Positions 46,609 through 55,449 of a stretch of DNA of 64,000 bases are shown one piece after another. Each line of letters starts with the position of its first letter. Position 1 is the first letter of the stretch. Both the position numbers and the translations under genes were made by a program. The notes below the pieces were generated by a model. The model saw nothing but the letters and a program-made list of their open reading frames with translations, had not been told where the DNA came from and did not search any database. Source of the DNA: Verrucomicrobiota bacterium (GTDB lineage Bacteria > Verrucomicrobiota > Verrucomicrobiia > Limisphaerales > UBA8199); contig JBDHQH010000002.1 of the NCBI GenBank assembly GCA_039806935.1, forward strand, positions 33,872 to 97,871, read 5' to 3'.

Positions 46609-48813
46609 TCAAGGGGAACGGAACGCGAAAGTCCAGCCGTGGCTGTCCTGGCCGGCGAGCGACGATCCATCTACCGCCAGCGTGAGAGTGTCCCGCCCCC
46701 CCTTGAACCAGGGTTCAATCGCGGTGCGCGCGACTCCGTACGTGTTCGGCCGGATATCGAAAACCAAGCTGATCACACCCGCTTCAGGATAAATTTTTCC
46801 GGCGAGTTGGCGGTAGAGCGTCGGGGCGGCGGCGGACTCCAGCCGGGCCTCGAGCGTGTTTGCGCCGGACTCGACCTTCAGCAAGAGCAGGCGCAGTTGA
46901 CTGCGCTGGGACCGAGCGGCGTCCACGGCATCCCCGGAGGCCACCACTCCAGCCCGGAGCAGCGATTGCAACACCTGCTGGCGCATCGCGCCCATTTGGC
47001 GACGTCTCGTGGTCTCTTCAAGGGAAAGAGGCTCGAAACGAAATGTTTGTCCGCGGTAATCACCCATCAGCGTGTCATTTTCCATGTGCAAGGCCAGCGA
47101 CGAAAGTCTCGGCAGGAAGGCTTTCGGAGGAATGCCGGGTGGAACAGAGTCGCGGATCTGCGTCAGGCGGAGGGGCCAGTGGGCCTCGCGATAGCGGTTG
47201 CCGATTAAGGGACCGGCCAATTGGAACTGCCAGGCAGGATGTGAGGGATCCTCGAGCACCGCCTGGACAGGCGATCCCGCATCGGGGACGCCTCCAAACC
47301 GCAACAGTATTTGTTCGCTCCCGGTCGCGCTGGTTTTCACCACTCCCGAGTAGATAGCCGCCGGTTGCAGCGCATCCAACATGGCAAAATAATCAGGGCT
47401 GGCGGCGCGTTTGACGTGTTCGGTTTCCTCGTCCGGCACCCGGGACCACTCGCTGGCCGTCCCCGCGAGACTGCCGATCAACCGTTCCCCTTTCACGGCA
47501 AGCAAAAGATGGATCATCTGCGGGTTGTCCAGCACCGGACCTCCCGAGCGAATTACTTGATCAGAAAGCGAAGTGAGCGCCACCTGAAAGCCCTCGGTGG
47601 CGGAATCGTATTTCCATTCCCCCTCGAATAACCGGCCATCTCCCCAGCCGCCGTCGTTGTGAAACATCGCTTTCAGAGTATGTATGTCAGAGTTGGCGGA
47701 GGATTCGATTATTTCCAGATACACCGGACGGCTCTCCTTGCGCACGGCCACGGTGCTGGTGAAGATCGCGCCCGGGCGGAAAAAGCCGGTAAGCGCCTGC
47801 TCTTCGCTCCGGTGGCCGGCCATCGCTTCCGCGAGGAGCTTTTGGCGCGCCTCTTGAAGTTTCGCCAGCGTCCCGGTTTGCTCGCCCGCGAGGGCGCGCA
47901 ATCGCGCGAGATCTTCAGGGCGTCCGACGTCAAAGGCTTCACCTTCGAGTTGTCCGCGAGGGCGCTGGTCCTGAGGAAAGGCCCCGATCGAGAGATTATC
48001 CAAGCTCACCTGCCAGGAACCACCCCGCCTCACGGCGCGAAGCCCTGCCGAACCGTCAAAGGCCTTGCCGGGGGGCGTGGCTAGCTTGACGAGCGCGATG
48101 CGCGTCAAATCCGGTGGGCGAACCGAAAAGCCGGCGATTTGCAGCAGCCGCGGCCCTTCTTTGGCGCTGAGCAGCTCAGTGATTTGCCGGTTTGCGCCCA
48201 GATCCATTTTCATTTCCTCCTCGAGATACCGGGCAGCGGGAAGCGGAGCGTACAAGGGCTGAATCAACGTGGCGGTGAAGGTGGCAGAGATGCCGGCTAC
48301 ACCCCGATACTGCGGGCCGGCTCGAAAAGAAAGCGATTTCAACGCGAGTCCTCGCTGGGCAAGCGCCGGGGCCAGAGCATTCTCAAGGGCAGAGCGAGGG
48401 AGGGCGGGAGGACGCCGTTGCCAGTGGATGTATGCGGGGATCGCGAGGATCGCCGCCGCGACCACCGCCACCGTTGCCCAGCGGATTACTCGCTGGCGAG
48501 CGGCGGCGGTTTCGGCGGCTTGCTTTTCGTCGCGCAGCCGCTCGAGTCGTGCGCGGAGTTGCGCTCCCTGTTGTTCTCGGAGGCGAAGGTGAGCCAGGGT
48601 CTTTCGTTCCTCGGCCAGCCGGTTTAACGCCCATTGGCAGCGCTGGGCTGCCGGTCGTGAAGCCACCTCGGGCGGCAAGGGAGCCGGGTTGGCGATGGAT
48701 TCGCCGACGCCGGAGTGTCCGAGATGGGCTTCGAGTTCCCGGCGCGCGGTGGTGGCCGCGGTCCACTTGGAGAGGCATGCCCGAAAGAGGATGGGTTCAA
48801 AATCTTTTCCCAT
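46609..48813 (-). CDS. Single-pass membrane protein (734 aa), last gene of the FtsK/WXG-like operon
   Basis: The cytoplasmic N-terminus has a coiled-coil-like stretch (LRLREQQGAQLRARLERLRDEKQAAE). One TM segment, WATVAVVAAAILAIPAYIHW, is encoded at 48421-48480, followed by a C-terminal domain of about 600 aa. No family recognised. Confidence 0.8.
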   Translation of the reverse strand: MGKDFEPILFRACLSKWTAATTARRELEAHLGHSGVGESIANPAPLPPEVASRPAAQRCQWALNRLAEERKTLAHLRLREQQGAQLRARLERLRDEKQAAETAAARQRVIRWATVAVVAAAILAIPAYIHWQRRPPALPRSALENALAPALAQRGLALKSLSFRAGPQYRGVAGISATFTATLIQPLYAPLPAARYLEEEMKMDLGANRQITELLSAKEGPRLLQIAGFSVRPPDLTRIALVKLATPPGKAFDGSAGLRAVRRGGSWQVSLDNLSIGAFPQDQRPRGQLEGEAFDVGRPEDLARLRALAGEQTGTLAKLQEARQKLLAEAMAGHRSEEQALTGFFRPGAIFTSTVAVRKESRPVYLEIIESSANSDIHTLKAMFHNDGGWGDGRLFEGEWKYDSATEGFQVALTSLSDQVIRSGGPVLDNPQMIHLLLAVKGERLIGSLAGTASEWSRVPDEETEHVKRAASPDYFAMLDALQPAAIYSGVVKTSATGSEQILLRFGGVPDAGSPVQAVLEDPSHPAWQFQLAGPLIGNRYREAHWPLRLTQIRDSVPPGIPPKAFLPRLSSLALHMENDTLMGDYRGQTFRFEPLSLEETTRRRQMGAMRQQVLQSLLRAGVVASGDAVDAARSQRSQLRLLLLKVESGANTLEARLESAAAPTLYRQLAGKIYPEAGVISLVFDIRPNTYGVARTAIEPWFKGGRDTLTLAVDGSSLAGQDSHGWTFAFRSP

Positions 48814-48829
48814 AAACGAAATTGTGGTG

Positions 48830-49237
48830 TCAGTCGCTTCCGGCGGCGGTCGCCTGGGCGATCAGGCCTCTCACGCCCGCGGCTAGATGATCGGTTTGAT
48901 CCGCCTGGGCCAAGGCGGTTGACGCTTCGCGGAGCGCGGCCTGGGCGCTCTGGTCGGACGCGGCGGCATTCCGCGCGGCTTCGGCGGATTCAGCGGCGCA
49001 CTGGCGGTGCTTCTCTTCCGCAAGCAGGCCTGCCTGCGCCGCCGATGCCAATTCGCGGTGCTGGGCTGCCACGGCGGCCAGGACCGTGGATTCCGCCGCG
49101 GCTCGAGGCTGAAGAAATTTTTGTTCCGCGGCGCGCGCGTTGGCGTCCCGCCAGAGGATCCGGGCCTCGGCCAGGACGTCCGCCAGCGAGCGGGCTTGCC
49201 GCTCGAGCGCCCAAAGCAGATCTTCCCGTTCACTCAT
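48830..49237 (-). CDS. Ala-rich helical protein (135 aa) with a W-R-D motif
   Basis: ATGA overlap with the upstream gene. ILWRDANARAAEQKF at residues 27-41. Composition predicts an all-helical protein. Confidence 0.7.
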   Translation of the reverse strand: MSEREDLLWALERQARSLADVLAEARILWRDANARAAEQKFLQPRAAAESTVLAAVAAQHRELASAAQAGLLAEEKHRQCAAESAEAARNAAASDQSAQAALREASTALAQADQTDHLAAGVRGLIAQATAAGSD

Positions 49238-50187
49238 GGCAAAACCCCCGGGCGGTTGAGTTCTTGCAAGGCTTCGATGGCGCGATCGATTTCTCCGCGT
49301 CCGGTGTCTTCGTAAATGGTGATTTCCGAAGCTGAATGTTCAGCCAGCCGGAGCTGGGCGGCCGCGTCTCTGATGCGGATGCCCGCAAGCTGAGCGGCTC
49401 CCGTTAGTTCCTCACTCGCGGAGTGTTCGCGATTCACTGCCGCGCGGGCCTCGTTGGATGCCTGTCGCGCCGCCGCGGCCAGGCGCAGTGCGCCATGCGC
49501 GGCGCTCACGGCGGCATGGCCGGACGCCACTGCGCGAGTGGCGGCCCCCAGCGCCGCTTCGGCATGTTCCACCGCGTGGGAACAGGCGGCCACTCGAGAC
49601 TCGGCGCGGCTGACTTCCCGTCGCGCGGTCTCGACTTGTCCTCGAGCCGCAGTCACGGCGCGTTCGGCGCTGGCCAGGGCGGCATACAGACTCGAGCAGT
49701 CACGCGCCGGGCCGTTCGGGTCGCGTGGCGCGGAGGCGCACGCGCGATACGCGCTGGCGGCGGCGGCGCAACGCCGTTCACATTCCGCAAGCACGCTCAG
49801 GGCAGCGGCCAAATCGCGCCGCGCGGTTTCGAGCCTCTCGCGGGCCTTTGCCAGATTGCCTCGCCAGAGCGCCACGGCCGCGTGGGCCTCCCGCAAGGCT
49901 GCTTGCGCATTGGCCAGTGCCTGGCCGCCACGCTCCTGGCTTCGCCGCGCGGAGGCTTCAGCCTGGCCGGCGAGATGCTCCGCTTCCCGGACGCGCCGTT
50001 CGTCTTCTCGCGCAGCCTCCGTCGCCAGAGCGGCCAGGCCCTGGACTCGGCGGGCGTGCTCCTCGGAGTGCCATTGCTCGCGGGCAGTGTCCTCCATTCC
50101 TGAACGCAGCACGGAACCACTGCGCCGAAGCTCGTAAGCCACGGATTCCAAAGCGTTGATTAAGGCGGTGGGATTATGCTGGGTCAT
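49234..50187 (-). CDS. Ala-rich long helical-hairpin protein (317 aa) with a canonical W-x-G motif
   Basis: 4-nt overlaps at both ends. ALWRGNLAKA (W108-R-G110, encoded at 49858-49866). Central Cys/Pro turn ECERRCAAAASAYRACASAPRDPNGPARDC. Confidence 0.75.
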   Translation of the reverse strand: MTQHNPTALINALESVAYELRRSGSVLRSGMEDTAREQWHSEEHARRVQGLAALATEAAREDERRVREAEHLAGQAEASARRSQERGGQALANAQAALREAHAAVALWRGNLAKARERLETARRDLAAALSVLAECERRCAAAASAYRACASAPRDPNGPARDCSSLYAALASAERAVTAARGQVETARREVSRAESRVAACSHAVEHAEAALGAATRAVASGHAAVSAAHGALRLAAAARQASNEARAAVNREHSASEELTGAAQLAGIRIRDAAAQLRLAEHSASEITIYEDTGRGEIDRAIEALQELNRPGVLP

Positions 50188-50477
50188 GGCAAGTCCGGAT
50201 GGGTGCGATTAGCCTCCCGTAAAGCGTCGAGGCGTTGACCAAGCAATGGGCGCAGACGCTCGATGGCGCCGAGGTAATCCTCGAACAGGCGCTCGGTGCG
50301 GAGCCACCCGGCGCGGAACTGTTCCGCCGCCTCGCCCTCGTAAACCTCGGAAAGCGCCCGCCAGGAGCTTTGTAGTGGCGGCAATTCCGATCGCAAAAGG
50401 CCAGTCTGCCGGGTGAGAGCCGCCTGATAATCCTCCAACGCCGCCGCCAGATATTTCAGATTTTCGGCCGTGCTCAT
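50184..50477 (-). CDS. WXG100-like small helical hairpin protein (97 aa, Y-E-G variant)
   Basis: The length and the central motif EVYEGEAAEQFRAGW (residues 44-58) mirror the ESAT-6-type pattern W-x-G-x4-A-[YF]. It immediately follows a second small helical protein. Confidence 0.7.
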   Translation of the reverse strand: MSTAENLKYLAAALEDYQAALTRQTGLLRSELPPLQSSWRALSEVYEGEAAEQFRAGWLRTERLFEDYLGAIERLRPLLGQRLDALREANRTHPDLP

Positions 50478-50480
50478 GAT

Positions 50481-50753
50481 TTAGGAACCAAGGAGATACC
50501 GGCGCAGGGCGGCGGATTTTTCGCGCAGAAAAAGTTCGAACGCGGGCGCTTCGCGCGCGCGGTACCGTTCCAACTGCTGGGCGAGTGGCTGATAAAGAGC
50601 GTCATAATCGCGCCGGAAAGAATCCTTCCAAAGCGGCGCCAGCCGGTCATGCGCCGACGCCAGTTCGCGGGCGGCGATGCTGAGCCGCTCGTGAAAGGCG
50701 CGTAAATCCCGGTGGAAACGCTCGAGGCGGGCCAATTGATCGTCCATGCTCAT
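50481..50753 (-). CDS. WXG100-like small helical hairpin protein (90 aa, W-K-D variant)
   Basis: Central motif PLWKDSFRRDY (W42). Its start overlaps the ATPase stop by 4 nt. It is predicted all-helical. Confidence 0.65.
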   Translation of the reverse strand: MSMDDQLARLERFHRDLRAFHERLSIAARELASAHDRLAPLWKDSFRRDYDALYQPLAQQLERYRAREAPAFELFLREKSAALRRYLLGS

Positions 50754-53700
50754 GTGGAGTGGGCGGACCGGCGGGCGAGGATTTGCGCGAGCGCCGGCAA
50801 CTCGGCCAGCGCGCCGTGGTTCGAGTCATCGCCACTTTCCAGTCGCGCGGCTACCGGCGGTTTGAAACGGACCAGACTCCCGGTATCCGCGTTGAAAATG
50901 AGAGCGCAGATGGGAAGATCGCCATCCGCTTGCAAGGTGGCCGCCACACGTTTGCCGGTCAGATCACCGGATTCGTCCTCGGGCATTTGCAAAAGCAGAC
51001 GGTGGTCAAAATGGGAGACACCTTTGCGCAGGTCAATGAGCGCGCAGAGCGCCCGGCCGCTTCCAGTGCTCAGAATCACATGAATGCCGAGCGCCGGCCC
51101 CTCGGTAAACAACCGGCGGAGCCTTGCGCCGGCGGGCGATTCGATGGGGGTTCCGTAAGGATCCGGTTGGCGCGCCAGGCTCTCGAATCGTTCGGGCTCC
51201 AGCAGGACAACAAAGAGACTGGGGCAGGCGCCGCGAGCCAGGTCGTCGAGGCCTTTCCGAGTGTCGAGTTCCGTCTCCAACTCCCGCAACACGGCTTCGA
51301 CCTCGCCGGGGTCGGTTACCACCCGACAAGCAGAGCGTGTGCTCCTCGCGACGTGTTCGTTCCAGGCGGGGGCCACCCGCGCCCAGGGCGAGCCGCGCGG
51401 TGTGCGATCCAGCAAAACAAAACGATTGAACCGTCCCTCGAGGTTCAGCGCGAAGCTGGTTAGCACACTCAGCAATAACCCGTGCCGGGCATTCGCGTGG
51501 TTGCCAACGATCAGGAGATTGTCGTGTCGTTTGCGCTTCAGTCTCAGGTCGGCATACCCGCGCACGTTAAATTCCTGGCCGACCCAGGCGATGCGCGGAT
51601 GCTCGGCCGGGTACCATTCAGCAGCGCCCACGCCGCCCTCCGCGAGGGGGCGTTTCACCCAATGCTCGAGCTCTTCTGGTTGGGGCGCGGAGGGGAGCGC
51701 TGCCAAGGCTGCCAGCCGCGGATTATCCAGCAGCTTGGGCTGGGCCAGACCCTCGAAAACCAGCGGCGCGCGCAATTGGGGAAATCGCACGGCGGCGTGC
51801 GCGGCGAGCCCCTCGACCAGGTGTTCGCGCTCGGTCGCTCGGAGCAGCGCGATGATCCCTGAGACATTGAAGCCGTCTTGTCCGCTGCGATCGTTGAGCA
51901 CCACCTTGCCGGGGCCGTCCAGGGCATTGATGGCCTCTTTGCCAGCGCGCTGGAACTCGGTCAAGGTGGCCACTTCCGCCTGGGCAATTTTCATCGCGAC
52001 ACGCAGCGCAATCTGGCTGAAGATCTCGTCCCGGCGCAGCATGCCGCTGGCTCCGAAGCGCTGGGAAGCCAGCAGCATGTGCAGGCCGGCGCTGCGCCCC
52101 TGGGCGCCCAGCAGCGCCAGATATTTCGAGGCTTCTCCCTCCCGATCGCCTTCGAACAACTCCTGATATTCATCGACCACCAGCACCAATCGGGGCAGGG
52201 GAGGCAAATCCGGCTGAGCTTGCCGCAGCCGCGCGTAATCCTTGAAGCCGGACACCTGATATTTGCGGAAGATCCCGTTGCGCCGCTCCATTTCCTGCGC
52301 CAGATCCGCCAGCAAGCTGCGAGCGAGTTGCGGCGAGGTGTTCAAGGATAACACCTCCGAGTGCGGCAGCCGGCGGTAGGTTCGGAACTCGACTCCATCC
52401 TTGCCGTCCACGAGATAGAATTTCAACTGCTCGGGCGAATAGCGCTGCGCGAGTCCGAGGATGAACACATGGAAGAGATTCGATTTCCCCATGCCGGTGC
52501 CGGCGCCAATCACCCCATGCACACAGGGCTGACCATCCTCGCTTTCCCCAAGCAGAATGCGCAGGGCGTCCTGCTCGCTGCCGCGGGCGCCGACGGGCGT
52601 AACCACCCGTTCCACGGACGACTCCCGCCACCACGCCTCCTCCGGCAGGCCCACCAACCCGGTGAAAGAGAGTTCGGAGCGAATCGCTTCGGCCTGGCTC
52701 AACTTGGTGAGCAAGGCTGATTGCAAAGCCGCCGCCGGGGGCGCATCAAGGGCCAGCCGCCAACCCGCGCCCGCTAATTCCTCGGCCTTGGCCAGCGGGT
52801 ACCAGGCGTGAGGAAAGGCCTTGATGCCGGATTGATCCATGTCGAATCCGCGCGGGAATTCCGCTGTCGTGTCCCAATGGAGCACCAAGTAGGTGCCGCC
52901 CTCCATGCCATTGTTGGCGATGCGGCGCAACAACTCGAGGCTGCGGCTGTCCATTTCAAATCCGCGTGGAAAATCCGCCACCACAACCAATTGCAGCTTT
53001 TCGCGACGCCGTTGGTTGGTTGGAATCTGCTCAAACGAACGGACCGAACCTCCCAAATGGTTGCGAGCCACCCGCACAAAGTTTCGCTCGGCGGATTCCA
53101 GGTCCTGAAAGAGGTCGGTGTTCTCGATGCGGCCCGGCAGGCGATTGGCCCAGCGGAAGGAGTTGCCGCTGTTGTGGGGATCAAGAAAAAGAAATCGCAC
53201 CTGATTGGGTAACGCCAGGGCGATCCGCCAAATCAGGGATTGAATGGCGTCGAGCACCGGCTGGCGGCGGGCGGGCTCGCTGGCCAACACCAGGGTCCGT
53301 TGCTGCCCGACAAATGGCGCCAGGAAGGGGGATGCCGGCCCTGAACCTTGCGCGGCCTGAATTTGGCCGAGGCATAGTGAATCGGGCAAATCGGTGACTC
53401 TCTGTTGCTCGGCCGGGTTGTAGCCGGCCCAGACGGATTCGTTCCAGCCAGGCCGCAAAAGCGGCGGCACGCGGCTCCAGGCGACCCCGCATTCCTTGTC
53501 AGCCGCCTCGGAAACGGCGGCGAATTCTTTCATCGCCCCGCGCCCCTCAAGCAGCGCCCGGGCCGCCAAGACGGGCAGGAGTCGTTCCGTTGCTGATTTT
53601 AGAGCCGCAGTTTCGCCGGCCAAAGCGTCCATTTCAGCCAGCCAGGGCTCGATGCCCCGAGCCTTGCCGCGGGAGCACCGCGCCTCGAGCTCGGTGATGG

Positions 53701-53776
53701 CCGACGGCTCGCCCGCGCAGGCTCGCTCGGCTAACGCTCTCGTCTGGCTTTGTCCCGCTGTGGAAGAATCACCCAT
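50750..53776 (-). CDS. FtsK/SpoIIIE-family ATPase with three P-loop-type modules (EssC/EccC-like architecture), no TM segment
   Basis: Middle module: Walker A GAGTGMGKS (52481-52507), Walker B LVLVVDEYQ, and GRSAGLHMLLASQR (FtsK RAAGIH..ATQRP-like). The flanking modules repeat the fold pattern with degenerate P-loops: LASEPARRQPV...LQLVVVADFPRG, and VGNHANARHG...LFVVLLEPERF...ALGIHVILSTG. ATG 53776 is preferred; the track ORF opens at TTG 53914. Confidence 0.85.
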   Translation of the reverse strand: MGDSSTAGQSQTRALAERACAGEPSAITELEARCSRGKARGIEPWLAEMDALAGETAALKSATERLLPVLAARALLEGRGAMKEFAAVSEAADKECGVAWSRVPPLLRPGWNESVWAGYNPAEQQRVTDLPDSLCLGQIQAAQGSGPASPFLAPFVGQQRTLVLASEPARRQPVLDAIQSLIWRIALALPNQVRFLFLDPHNSGNSFRWANRLPGRIENTDLFQDLESAERNFVRVARNHLGGSVRSFEQIPTNQRRREKLQLVVVADFPRGFEMDSRSLELLRRIANNGMEGGTYLVLHWDTTAEFPRGFDMDQSGIKAFPHAWYPLAKAEELAGAGWRLALDAPPAAALQSALLTKLSQAEAIRSELSFTGLVGLPEEAWWRESSVERVVTPVGARGSEQDALRILLGESEDGQPCVHGVIGAGTGMGKSNLFHVFILGLAQRYSPEQLKFYLVDGKDGVEFRTYRRLPHSEVLSLNTSPQLARSLLADLAQEMERRNGIFRKYQVSGFKDYARLRQAQPDLPPLPRLVLVVDEYQELFEGDREGEASKYLALLGAQGRSAGLHMLLASQRFGASGMLRRDEIFSQIALRVAMKIAQAEVATLTEFQRAGKEAINALDGPGKVVLNDRSGQDGFNVSGIIALLRATEREHLVEGLAAHAAVRFPQLRAPLVFEGLAQPKLLDNPRLAALAALPSAPQPEELEHWVKRPLAEGGVGAAEWYPAEHPRIAWVGQEFNVRGYADLRLKRKRHDNLLIVGNHANARHGLLLSVLTSFALNLEGRFNRFVLLDRTPRGSPWARVAPAWNEHVARSTRSACRVVTDPGEVEAVLRELETELDTRKGLDDLARGACPSLFVVLLEPERFESLARQPDPYGTPIESPAGARLRRLFTEGPALGIHVILSTGSGRALCALIDLRKGVSHFDHRLLLQMPEDESGDLTGKRVAATLQADGDLPICALIFNADTGSLVRFKPPVAARLESGDDSNHGALAELPALAQILARRSAHST

Positions 53777-54360
53777 AAATACAATAGTTCGCCGCTCGAA
53801 GTCCGGTTTGCTGATCGCCCGAGTCGGTCCGCGGGGGTGTGAGCCAGCACCGGGAAACAAAACTGCGCCATCAGTTACGCGCAATACTCTTATACTGGAT
53901 TCTGATCCAGTCAACGGAAGAATGGCGTGACTGGGGCGCCGGCGGGCGCCGCAAACGCTCCGGCGTTGCGTATCGCCGATCTCTGCGATGGCCGGGGGTC
54001 CCGCACCGCCACCGCGCGGGTCAGGCTGAATGAAAACAGGGCTCTGTAGCAGCCGAAGAAAGCAATGCCAACCCCAAGGGGTTCGGGGGAAAGGGAACGG
54101 GGGAGACTGCGATGGGTTGTGCGCCCCACCGAGAAAAACGGAATGTCGAGGGTCAGTTCGAGTTCCCAGCAGGTTCGGATTTTTCCCCCGCCAGCGGAGC
54201 CAATTTGCTTTAAATCCGATTCCAAGGTGTTACTCTGCGTCCTGGGCGGAAGGCGCGGAAGGCGGTTTGTTTCAAAATTGGCTTGAGCTTCCGGGTCTCC
54301 CGCCTTAGATGATCGTGGCAAGCCGCATTCCGCGGCCACGCCCAACGACTGCCCTGAATC

Positions 54361-55449
54361 ATGACTGTTCAAAGCCTGTTTACGACCCCGTCCGCCGGCG
54401 CGCTCGACCTGTTGTCGCTGGGAGCCCTAGTGCATCGGCTGGATCCCGGAGTGATCCCGTTTCGCAAAGCCGCCGCGTGCGAGATCCACGTCAGCGGCGG
54501 TGAGTTTAATGTGGCTGCGAACCTGGCGGACTGTTTTCGGCTGCGCACAGGGATCGTCAGCGCGATGGTGGATTATCCGTTGGGCGACCTGATCGCCGAG
54601 CGGGTGCGAGCCATGGGGGTGCGGCCTTTTTACAAGCACTTTCAGCACGATGGAGTGCGCGGACCCAACATGGCGGCAGTTTACAGCGACCGCGGGCAGG
54701 GCGTACGCGCTCCAGTAGTGTTTTACAACCGGTGCGACGAGGCCGCGGCGCGGTTGAAGCCCGGAGATTTCGATTGGAAGGGAATTTTTAGCGAGGGCGT
54801 CCGGTGGTTCCATAGCGGAGGCATCTTTGCCGCGCTTTCGCCGACGACCGCCGAGTTGATCATCGAAGCCATGCAGGCGGCTCGGCAAGCGGGCGCGGTG
54901 GTTTCCTTCGATTTAAACTACCGGGCCAAGCTTTGGAACAGCTCAGGCGGCCATGAGCGGGCGGTTGCCATCCTCGATCGCATCGTCAGGCAGGTGGATG
55001 TGCTGGTGGGGAACGAGGAGGATTTGCAAATGGGCCTGGGGATTCCGGGGCCTGAGGTGGCGGCCAAATCGAAGCTGGATCCGAGCGCGTTTCTGGCCAT
55101 GATCGGCCAGGTGACCCGGAAGCACCCGCATTTGAAGGTGCTGGCCACTACCCTGCGGGAAGTGCATTCCACCAATCGGCATAGTTGGAGCGCCGTGGCC
55201 TGGATCTGCGGCCGCACCCACGTGGCGCCCACCTGCGAATTGGACGTTCTGGACCGCGTGGGCGGCGGGGATGGATTTGCCTCGGGTTTGTTTTACGGTT
55301 TGTTGCAGGGGTTGCCGGAGGAGGAAGCGGTCAAGCTGGGCTGGGCGCATGGCGCGCTGCTGACCACTTTCCCGGGGGATACCACGATGGCGACGCTGGA
55401 GCAGGTCGCGGCGTTTGCCCAAGGCGGTTCCGCGCGGATTCAACGGTAA
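54361..55449 (+). CDS. PfkB-family sugar kinase (2-dehydro-3-deoxygluconokinase-like)
   Basis: GGEFNVAANLA near the N-terminus, and the C-terminal GGGDGFASGLFYGLL anion-hole motif. Confidence 0.8.
   Translation: MTVQSLFTTPSAGALDLLSLGALVHRLDPGVIPFRKAAACEIHVSGGEFNVAANLADCFRLRTGIVSAMVDYPLGDLIAERVRAMGVRPFYKHFQHDGVRGPNMAAVYSDRGQGVRAPVVFYNRCDEAAARLKPGDFDWKGIFSEGVRWFHSGGIFAALSPTTAELIIEAMQAARQAGAVVSFDLNYRAKLWNSSGGHERAVAILDRIVRQVDVLVGNEEDLQMGLGIPGPEVAAKSKLDPSAFLAMIGQVTRKHPHLKVLATTLREVHSTNRHSWSAVAWICGRTHVAPTCELDVLDRVGGGDGFASGLFYGLLQGLPEEEAVKLGWAHGALLTTFPGDTTMATLEQVAAFAQGGSARIQR

Follow-up and report, generated by a model that had tools for sequence, protein, structure and literature searches.

Our analyses suggest that an operon on the minus strand of a Verrucomicrobiota genome encodes a reduced, type VII-like system that exports helical-bundle proteins, driven by a soluble motor of three FtsK-type modules; we put the probability of this reading at roughly 0.6. 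The window, by which we mean the whole stretch of 64,000 nucleotides analyzed, comes from contig JBDHQH010000002.1 (assembly GCA_039806935.1; Limisphaerales), and the operon most likely extends from position 46609 to position 53776 within it. Its first gene codes for the motor, an ATPase with a single intact P-loop, and is followed by the genes of four helical proteins, here called A to D, and of a membrane protein of 734 amino acids (aa).

The toxin-fused helical proteins of related loci provide what we take, by analogy, to be the strongest argument for seeing the cassette as an export device. Counting fused enzymatic domains only above the Pfam cut-offs, we found AHH nuclease domains joined to a D-type N-terminus in Herpetosiphon and to B-type WXG proteins in Dolichospermum, a Tox-REase-2 domain joined to a B-type protein in Prochloron, and GNAT domains joined to a D-type protein of a Chloroflexia metagenome-assembled genome (MAG) and to several C-type proteins (Table 1; locus labels are our own). 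WXG100 hairpins, together with AHH and Tox-REase-2 domains, typify polymorphic toxins that are exported, and it is because the fusions in relatives show this architecture that we favor export. A more distant cluster, on a 47-kb plasmid of Helicobacter sp. NHP19-012 (L063, 27083-42135), has consecutive genes for an A-type hairpin (3e-8), an HNH endonuclease, an SMI1/KNR4 protein, a protein of 77 aa, and an FtsK-like ATPase of 823 aa, which has one central Walker A motif and is matched by the hidden Markov model (HMM) of our middle module at 2e-55. SMI1/KNR4 proteins belong to the SUKH immunity superfamily and are typical of immunity to exported toxins.

The association of the ATPase with the helical proteins recurs: taking one genome per species, we collected 58 loci, and tblastn with the window proteins placed A in 50 of them, B in 47, C in 27, and D in 19. 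Without exception, they lie just downstream of the ATPase and follow one another in constant order. The ATPase and A to D thus form a fixed five-gene core, and in about 50 loci an FtsK-family ATPase stands beside WXG100-family genes. Members of the B family have the turn YEGxAAxxFxxxW, and 16 of 20 match Pfam WXG100 (best 7e-9); those of the A family combine a W-x-D turn with a conserved C-terminal RYLxG, and 7 of 20 match the same model. The two families are paralogous (E 3.4e-5 over the full length), and the best solved structure for both is Helicobacter pylori HP0062 (A 5.9e-5, B 3.5e-4), followed by EsxB and EsxA; the B profile reaches HP0062, EsxB, and ESAT-6-like structures at 3.5e-4 to 5e-3. 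The B and C families have a C-terminal tail in common, (E/D)R[IL]xxLxxxNRP, which is conserved across phyla and could act as a common signal for recognition or export. The 317-aa C protein of the window has cysteines at aa 136, 140, 150, 164, and 202, the last three nearly invariant in its family; such residues are unusual for a cytoplasmic coiled coil and could form disulfides after export or bind metal.

Within the window itself, no toxin domain was found in proteins A to D. A profile search of a large protein database with the C family returned only a sequence of the query alignment and one close relative, and we do not assign the D family to WXG100 or LXG, as it gave one weak LXG match and its PDB profile search returned generic coiled coils. 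The C-type proteins of two Pyrinomonadaceae MAGs (L005:4234-5658 and L036:13235-14653) end in about 100 aa with a DNGRHR motif, a region reminiscent of ParB/Srx-type nuclease domains that has no Pfam match. In Marinifilum, a membrane-anchored thioredoxin-like protein is encoded directly downstream (L020:15321-16514).

For the ATPase, the original prediction, made from the DNA letters alone, had proposed a triple-module FtsK-type protein related to EssC and EccC, with only the middle P-loop intact and without transmembrane (TM) and FHA regions, and our results bear out most of this. The motifs it quoted, LASEPARRQPV, GAGTGMGKS, VVDEYQ, ASQR, and GNHANARHG, are all found in the sequence (ATPase residue numbers here and in Table 1 are those of a 1008-aa form unless stated). 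In an AlphaFold2 model of the full protein, built on a 12-sequence alignment (predicted local distance difference test, pLDDT, 78; predicted template-modeling score, pTM, 0.62), the order strand-strand-strand-helix-strand...helix-strand occurs three times. The top PDB match of this model is the cytoplasmic D1-D3 part of Thermomonospora curvata EccC (4nh0; Foldseek E 1.5e-32 over 984 aligned columns), and the next are D2-D3 of EccC and EssC and the FtsK motor (E about 2e-15); TcpA is matched as well.

The flanking modules deserve a closer look, as the prediction would have fallen had they not been P-loop folds. Modeled alone (pLDDT 84.7, pTM 0.86), the N-module matched EssC D2-D3 (4lya; 3.9e-9, TM-score 0.61), EccCb1-D2 (9jv8; 2.3e-7), and the FtsK motor (about 3e-7), and no other fold at comparable significance in Foldseek. 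In sequence it is far more divergent than the C-module, its profile reaching E 0.048 to YukB and, with hhalign, 1.8e-4 to the M-module and 9.7e-6 to the C-module. The C-module is homologous to the M-module in profile-profile comparison (hhalign 97.4%, E 1.2e-11), GNHANARHG falling on GAGTGMGKS, and its profile matches the solved structures of EccC5, EccC D2, and EssC D2 (5e-9 to 8e-5). Both flanks are FtsK/EssC-type P-loop folds that have lost the P-loop, the Walker A position being replaced in each, and ATP binding and hydrolysis are possible only in the M-module. The latter bears the signature of the FtsK/HerA superfamily (AGTGMGKS, VVDEYQ, ASQR), invariant in the family; ASQR is presumably the counterpart of the FtsK-family TQRP motif with its arginine finger, a role taken from family knowledge. 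Pfam reports a single FtsK_SpoIIIE domain in the protein (104 bits against a cut-off of 24; 1e-29; aa 465-621 of the long, 1054-aa form), with a sub-threshold AAA_22 match overlapping the same P-loop region, and neither an FHA nor a Yop-YscD domain even at E<=1. A hydropathy scan gave no TM helix: the highest Kyte-Doolittle window of 19 residues reaches 1.46 and lies on a predicted strand/helix of the C-module, and the N-terminus is made up entirely of soluble helices in the predicted model.

We compared the module profiles, using hhalign in local mode, with alignments of the DUF, D1, D2, and D3 domains of 50 EccC proteins. The M-module gave E values of 1.3e-4, 1.5e-32, 7.7e-22, and 1.8e-13, respectively, and is the equivalent of EccC D1, not D2. 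The three modules are not, however, simply D1-D2-D3. The C-module (1.2e-4, 2.4e-7, 2.7e-8, and 3.8e-8) is equidistant from D1, D2, and D3, with values all around 1e-7 to 1e-8, and we do not name it D2 or D3. The N-module (3.3e-3, 0.073, 0.017, and 0.24) sits where the EccC DUF would, but we do not claim it as the DUF counterpart at an E value of 3.3e-3 (probability about 10%); in Foldseek it favors D2, D3, and FtsK over the ESX-3 EccC chain (1.9e-3). The order degenerate, D1-like, degenerate recalls the EccC series DUF-D1-D2 minus the TM helices and the fourth domain.

Searches with whole-protein models point the same way. The NCBIfam model EccCa matches at 2.6e-38, on its D1 part, against 3.5e-6 for FtsK, and the best sequence matches in the PDB, to EccC, EccC5, and YukB, are strongest on D1. 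All the NCBIfam scores stay far below the curated cut-offs: 132 versus 509 bits for EccCa, 74 versus 347 for EccCb, 96 versus 778 for EssC, and 25 versus 1566 for FtsK. With EccC, EssC, and YukB the ATPase shares tandem FtsK-type modules, a D1-like active module, and linkage to WXG100-type genes. It differs in having one Walker A motif, whereas the EccC proteins examined have three; in showing no TM helices in the hydropathy scan, whereas N-terminal ones anchor EccC and EssC; and in giving no match to the N-terminal FHA domains of EssC from T7SSb, one variant of the secretion system called type VII (T7SS). No Pfam or NCBIfam match to the partners EccB, EccD, EccE, and MycP or EsaA, EssA, and EssB was found in the operon. 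Lacking TM and FHA regions and two of the three P-loops, and scoring below threshold, the protein is neither an EccC nor an EssC. With the FtsK/SpoIIIE translocases it has in common the P-loop superfamily, the Walker A and B motifs, and the (T/S)QR arginine-finger motif, but those proteins have one FtsK motor domain against three modules here, stand in a different genomic context, and differ in the TM part, which is missing here.

The one-live-module design is a property of a large family. A word-indexed search returned full-length homologues of 947-1078 aa, one of them from Deinococcus, and in an exhaustive search with the N-module HMM 1,750 representative clusters (50% identity) passed E<=1e-3 and 1,072 of them passed E<=1e-10; the usual length is 920-1000 aa. 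Exactly one Walker A, counted by the pattern [AG].{4}GK[ST], is present in 102 of 115 full-length representatives. This layout goes far past what chance would give, being conserved from end to end across 12 aligned homologues and in 58 loci of many phyla, and the degenerate P-loop positions keep a consensus of their own, such as GxxNxARYG in the C-module. The closest relative of the window ATPase, with 70% identity, comes from a Limisphaerales MAG, and between the two orthologues the ratio of nonsynonymous to synonymous substitution rates (dN/dS) is 0.14 for the N-module, 0.07 for the M-module, 0.13 for the C-module, and about 0.29 for the N-terminal helical region, rough values as synonymous sites are near saturation. 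The degenerate modules are functional parts under purifying selection and not products of decay.

The 58 loci cover Verrucomicrobiota, Acidobacteriota, Chloroflexota, Cyanobacteria (Microcystis, Prochloron, Dolichospermum, and Phormidium), Bacteroidota (Marinifilum and Chitinophaga), Actinomycetota, Planctomycetota, and several Proteobacteria; beyond them, the family is represented by Deinococcus proteins and a Deinococcus plasmid. An actinobacterial variant (L027, L032, L033, L037, L038, L042, and L051; Actinomycetes and Acidimicrobiia) has ATPases of 1085-1130 aa, a downstream protein of about 315 aa in place of the A-D set, conserved neighbors of about 600-700 aa and, with two TM helices, about 230 aa, and on some contigs two ATPase copies. 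In L043, L052, L054, and L055 the ATPase is split into two or three open reading frames (ORFs), as is the AHH toxin at L055:14521-15381; these are either decaying copies or errors of MAG assembly.

Attachment to the membrane seems to be needed again and again in the family and to be achieved by different means. Clustering the ORFs around the 58 loci with a simple ORF caller and BLAST, we identified in 23 of them a protein of 110-145 aa, named c2, with a helical cytoplasmic part, a TPPxE motif, and a single TM helix at its extreme C-terminus (e.g., L013:7684-8043, L006:5773-6159, and L062:6345-6773). Its gene follows D in Chloroflexota and Acidobacteriota and directly precedes the ATPase in Cyanobacteria, and it is found on the Deinococcus plasmid that bears the entire cassette. 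In a database of 882 proteins, the c2 HMM matched upstream TM proteins of 123-136 aa from Chitinophagaceae and a Verrucomicrobiota MAG (1.8e-6 and 1.5e-4) and, weakly, the N-terminal extensions of the Actinomycetota ATPases of about 1085-1130 aa (E about 4e-4); on the N-terminal extension of the Marinifilum ATPase its domain E is 0.013. The absence of TM segments is not universal among the ATPases either: some long ones have N-terminal hydrophobic segments (L024 2.62, L031 2.03, and L056 2.38), and a sister group of about 1300 aa has two adjacent TM-like segments. The c2 of Parabeggiatoa (L043:14907-15620) has an extra outer domain, PEGA-like by eye.

In the window, the 734-aa protein is the sole TM protein of the operon, and for that reason a coupling role suggests itself; that it couples the ATPase to the membrane, as the original prediction had considered, is plausible only by elimination. 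It begins with about 108 aa of charged helices, continues with the TM helix (hydropathy 2.05), and ends in some 600 residues that are probably periplasmic; self-BLAST of the protein found no internal repeats. Pfam, NCBIfam, and PADLOC gave no family match; tblastn over the 58 loci found the protein only in the Limisphaerales orthologue, and a collection of 5.8 billion proteins holds four clusters of it, confined to Limisphaerales-like genomes. We tried its N-terminus as a c2 homologue and rejected the idea, the c2 HMM giving no match and hhalign 28% over 16 columns; the analogy is one of architecture.

We picture the export system as follows. The ATPase would work as a ring, like FtsK and EccC, its dead modules serving as scaffold and docking sites for a substrate or adaptor; they may read the C-terminal tails, RYLxG on A and, on B and C, (E/D)R[IL]xxLxxxNRP. 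Together, A and B would form a four-helix bundle like that of EsxA and EsxB, which might be exported itself or escort C and D, much as LXG toxins of T7SSb are escorted by Lap proteins. Instead of TM helices of its own, a small partner would keep the ring at the inner membrane: in most of the family the tail-anchored c2 protein, of which a related domain seems to be fused to the ATPase in some lineages, and here perhaps the cytoplasmic N-terminus and TM helix of the 734-aa protein, with the outer domain in the periplasm. Going further, the family may constitute a distinct class of T7SS-related export machines in diderm and other non-Firmicute, non-mycobacterial bacteria, without a polytopic membrane protein, in which a soluble ring of three-module ATPases docks on a ring of single-pass proteins (c2 in most lineages, the 734-aa protein here) and pushes folded helical bundles, which in some lineages bear nuclease or acetyltransferase toxins, across the inner membrane; this generalization is tentative, and we hold it to be rather doubtful in its full form.

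Several observations weigh against export. According to the literature, it is unconfirmed for Gram-negative WXG100 clusters. No polytopic membrane or outer-membrane component is conserved with the cassette across the 58 loci, and no translocation channel can be named. Clear immunity genes were not found beside the toxin fusions of the cyanobacterial and Chloroflexi loci. In the window, the 97-aa B protein scores 25.0 bits (E 2.4e-5) with Pfam WXG100 (PF06013), under the cut-off of 27.3, and has the turn Y-E-G, not W-x-G; the 90-aa A protein alone has no Pfam match. There is no c2 homologue in the window, no similarity between c2 and the 734-aa protein was detected, and the support for c2-ATPase fusions is statistically weak, with E about 1e-4 in a small database, and weaker still for Marinifilum and Verrucomicrobia. 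Finally, the flanking genes in other genomes resemble defense or conflict islands, which is also compatible with a role inside the cell.

The last point leads to the most serious alternative, an intracellular conflict or anti-phage system in which the soluble ATPase would detect an invader or remodel the helical proteins, and the fusions would be abortive-infection effectors acting within the producer. The solubility of the ATPase and the lack of a conserved channel fit such a system, as do the patchy distribution across phyla, the insertion sequence (IS) elements beside the cassette on the Deinococcus plasmid, the neighbors that include TPR-CHAT, HerA-like, SNF2-PLD, WD40, and PHP/AAA_21 proteins elsewhere, and the several toxin fusions that no obvious immunity gene follows. 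Known defense systems are nevertheless no closer than the generic FtsK domain of SspH and mad8, beyond which no PADLOC-DB 2.0 model matches the ATPase; the other five operon proteins gave nothing significant, with marginal coiled-coil matches for the 317-aa protein (JetC, E about 0.01-0.07). Moreover, the WXG100 hairpins and the AHH and Tox-REase-2 domains mark toxins that are exported, the SMI1/KNR4 gene comes right after the HNH toxin in the related Helicobacter cluster, the cassette has a conserved tail-anchored companion to which a domain fused to some of the ATPases is related, and the active module is far closer to EccC D1 than to other FtsK relatives. On balance, we regard an intracellular system as unlikely.

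A role in DNA translocation, after the manner of FtsK, TraB, or conjugative coupling proteins and with the small genes as unrelated passengers, seems very improbable. Some database copies are annotated as "DNA translocase FtsK," Foldseek also matches the FtsK motor and TcpA, and the gene occasionally occurs on plasmids; a full-length member is, however, present on only 1 of 72,556 plasmids, the NCBIfam score for FtsK is 25 bits against 132 for EccCa, and the linkage to four helical proteins holds in about 50 loci of many phyla. The ATPase has no TM anchor and no DNA-binding or other Pfam domain beyond FtsK_SpoIIIE, although no search was aimed at the gamma domain, and relaxase, replication, and partition genes were not found in the operon. 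More improbable still is a decayed, non-functional remnant of a normal EccC or EssC: two of three P-loops are destroyed, canonical T7SS membrane genes were not found nearby, and split genes occur in the four loci mentioned, but the reading is effectively refuted by the conservation of the architecture in more than 1,000 clusters at 50% identity, the degenerate positions with their own consensus, the dN/dS of 0.13-0.14 in the dead modules, and an intact operon that is identical on six independent contigs.

The gene itself is shorter than the ORF. We take 50750-53776 as its extent because both the publicly called gene and the orthologue with 70% identity start at ATG 53776, where the homologues also begin, and because the TTG "start" of the longer ORF falls within a TTGACT hexamer resembling a -35 element; the extension is probably untranslated. 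With its TTGACT, the perfect palindrome downstream of it, and TATAAG, the segment 53885-53914 (minus strand) could be the operon promoter with an operator site; a generic promoter scan did not pick up the TTGACT/TATAAG pair upstream of the ATPase, which has a short spacer. An upstream ORF of 153 aa (53911-54372) was considered as a missing TM part and rejected, being unconserved at the orthologous locus, uncalled, and junk-like in sequence. The corrected gene model therefore gains no TM or FHA part, and the concern that it might has been removed. The six genes are co-directional, with overlaps of 4 nt or gaps of at most 16 nt, and the identical ATPase protein occurs on six public contigs, each with the same six genes called. 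The operon is bordered by a PfkB-family kinase gene in divergent orientation and by a GFO/IDH/MocA oxidoreductase gene in convergent orientation; its neighbors in the window are genes of sugar metabolism, with none for mobility among them, and this copy is not obviously mobile. Transfer RNA and Rfam scans of the window gave no matches. GC content peaks at 0.68 in 48001-50000, against about 0.61 for the window, where the Ala-rich 317-aa gene and the 135-aa gene lie; the peak is probably compositional and not a sign of foreign origin.

Table 1. Positions of the operon features in the window and of the enzyme-domain fusions in related loci.
Feature	Position	Strand	Details
ATPase ORF	50750..53914	-	1054 aa counted from TTG 53914
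ATPase gene, most likely true extent	50750..53776	-	1008 aa from ATG 53776 (M47 of the 1054-aa ORF)
Leader, promoter-like stretch	53777..53914	-	TTGACT, then palindrome CTGGAT-caga-ATCCAG, then TATAAG; read from sequence
N-terminal helical region	53465..53776	-	aa 1-104; long predicted helix aa 43-101
N-module, degenerate FtsK/EssC-type P-loop fold	52652..53464	-	aa 105-375; Foldseek, hhalign
LASEPARRQPV	53255..53287	-	aa 164-174; between strand and helix at the Walker A position of the N-module
M-module, middle, EccC-D1-like	51707..52651	-	aa 376-690; Pfam, NCBIfam, PDB profile matches, hhalign
Walker A GAGTGMGKS	52481..52507	-	aa 424-432; G428, G430, K431, S432 invariant
Walker B VVDEYQ	52163..52180	-	aa 533-538; D535, E536 invariant
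ASQR	52058..52069	-	aa 570-573; Q572 invariant, R573 at least 90%
C-module, degenerate P-loop fold	50753..51706	-	aa 691-1008; homologous to M-module and EccC D1-D3
GNHANARHG	51479..51505	-	aa 758-766; degenerate Walker A site in the C-module; GxxNxARYG is the consensus in the family, Lys-Ser/Thr absent
90-aa helical hairpin, A family	50481..50753	-	start overlaps ATPase stop by 4 nt; LWKD turn aa 41-44; RYLxG tail
97-aa WXG100-like hairpin, B family	50184..50477	-	YEGEAAEQFRAGW at aa 46-58
Tail of the 97-aa protein	50187-50231	-	LDALREANRTHPDLP
317-aa Ala-rich coiled-coil protein, C family	49234..50187	-	conserved cysteines; B-like C-terminal tail
Tail of the 317-aa protein	49237-49278	-	IEALQELNRPGVLP
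135-aa helical protein, D family	48830..49237	-	WxDxxA motif aa 29-41
734-aa single-pass membrane protein	46609..48813	-	TM aa 109-131 (48421-48489); final operon gene
D-type N-terminus + AHH nuclease, Herpetosiphon	L015:13356-14411		63.6 bits; D-family HMM 2.7e-26 on aa 1-130
B-type WXG + AHH, Dolichospermum L023 and split L055	L023:6797-7663; L055 (AHH on second ORF)		54.3 and 52.8 bits
B-type WXG + Tox-REase-2, Prochloron	L013:13257-14003		39.1 bits
D-type + GNAT, Chloroflexia MAG	L034:14511-15455		20.9 bits (cut-off 20.7)
C-type + GNAT	L010, L013, L014, L023		up to 31.4 bits

The architecture of the ATPase is a rediscovery and not new. A one-sentence footnote without data in Zhang et al. 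(2012) mentions a WXG-linked triple HerA/FtsK ATPase of Gram-negative lineages, Verrucomicrobia among those listed, with only the middle domain active; the WXG genes were called "solo" and the systems mobile versions of T7SS. Our ATPase is a typical member of that family, with three FtsK-type modules, the middle one active, and stand-alone WXG-type genes directly downstream. What differs from the footnoted type are the five to six conserved cassette genes, including the tail-anchored protein, and the toxin and GNAT fusions of several lineages; the AHH, Tox-REase-2, and GNAT fusions of Chloroflexota and Cyanobacteria contradict the "solo" description. Signs of mobility in the family are the patchy distribution and one plasmid copy beside IS elements, and the window copy is without mobility genes. 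The nine T7SS variants (a-i) reviewed by Garrett & Palmer (2024) are all Gram-positive, with a membrane-bound ATPase, and in the literature searched, up to mid-2026, we found no experimental paper on the present ATPase family.

Among other known systems, H. pylori HP0062/HP0066 has been noted as ESAT-6-like with an FtsK/SpoIIIE neighbor and called a "WXG100 secretion system"; the WRD turn of HP0062 (PDB 2GTS, 3FX7), the best structural match of the A and B families, corresponds to the W-x-D of the 90-aa protein. The Helicobacter plasmid ATPase, like ours, has its single Walker A in the middle, but at 823 aa it shares 25% identity over aa 263-632 and matches the N-module HMM at E 0.002, and its cluster has the HNH toxin and SMI1/KNR4 genes instead of C and D. 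That cluster adjoins a MazF/RHH toxin-antitoxin pair and a replication gene. The LXG/WXG toxins of T7SSb with their Lap and WXG100 helpers offer a parallel in the small WXG100-like hairpins beside longer helical proteins, which in some genomes have nuclease or other enzymatic domains at their ends; here, in contrast, there is no Pfam LXG domain beyond single sub-threshold matches, and C and D of the window are without a toxin domain.

Overall, the window operon is an intact, typical member of its family with one lineage-specific accessory gene, and what we add at the family level is that the live module is a D1, that five genes make up a fixed core, and that the family has a tail-anchored partner with fusions of its own, C-terminal tails common to two of the proteins, and relatives fused to toxins. 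T7SS has been treated as a system of Actinomycetota and Bacillota centered on the membrane-embedded EccC or EssC, whereas this family keeps a D1-like motor and WXG100 partners but has dispensed with the membrane domain, with two of the active sites, and with every known core partner. If there is no export, WXG100 proteins would act inside the cell in a way not yet considered in the field. If export is true, the family would be T7SS's simplest relative, would define a minimal machine of that kind for diderm bacteria, and would offer a handle on the role of the non-catalytic EccC domains and on the identity of the channel; it would also represent an unrecognized route by which Gram-negative and environmental bacteria, bloom-forming Microcystis among them, deliver toxins.

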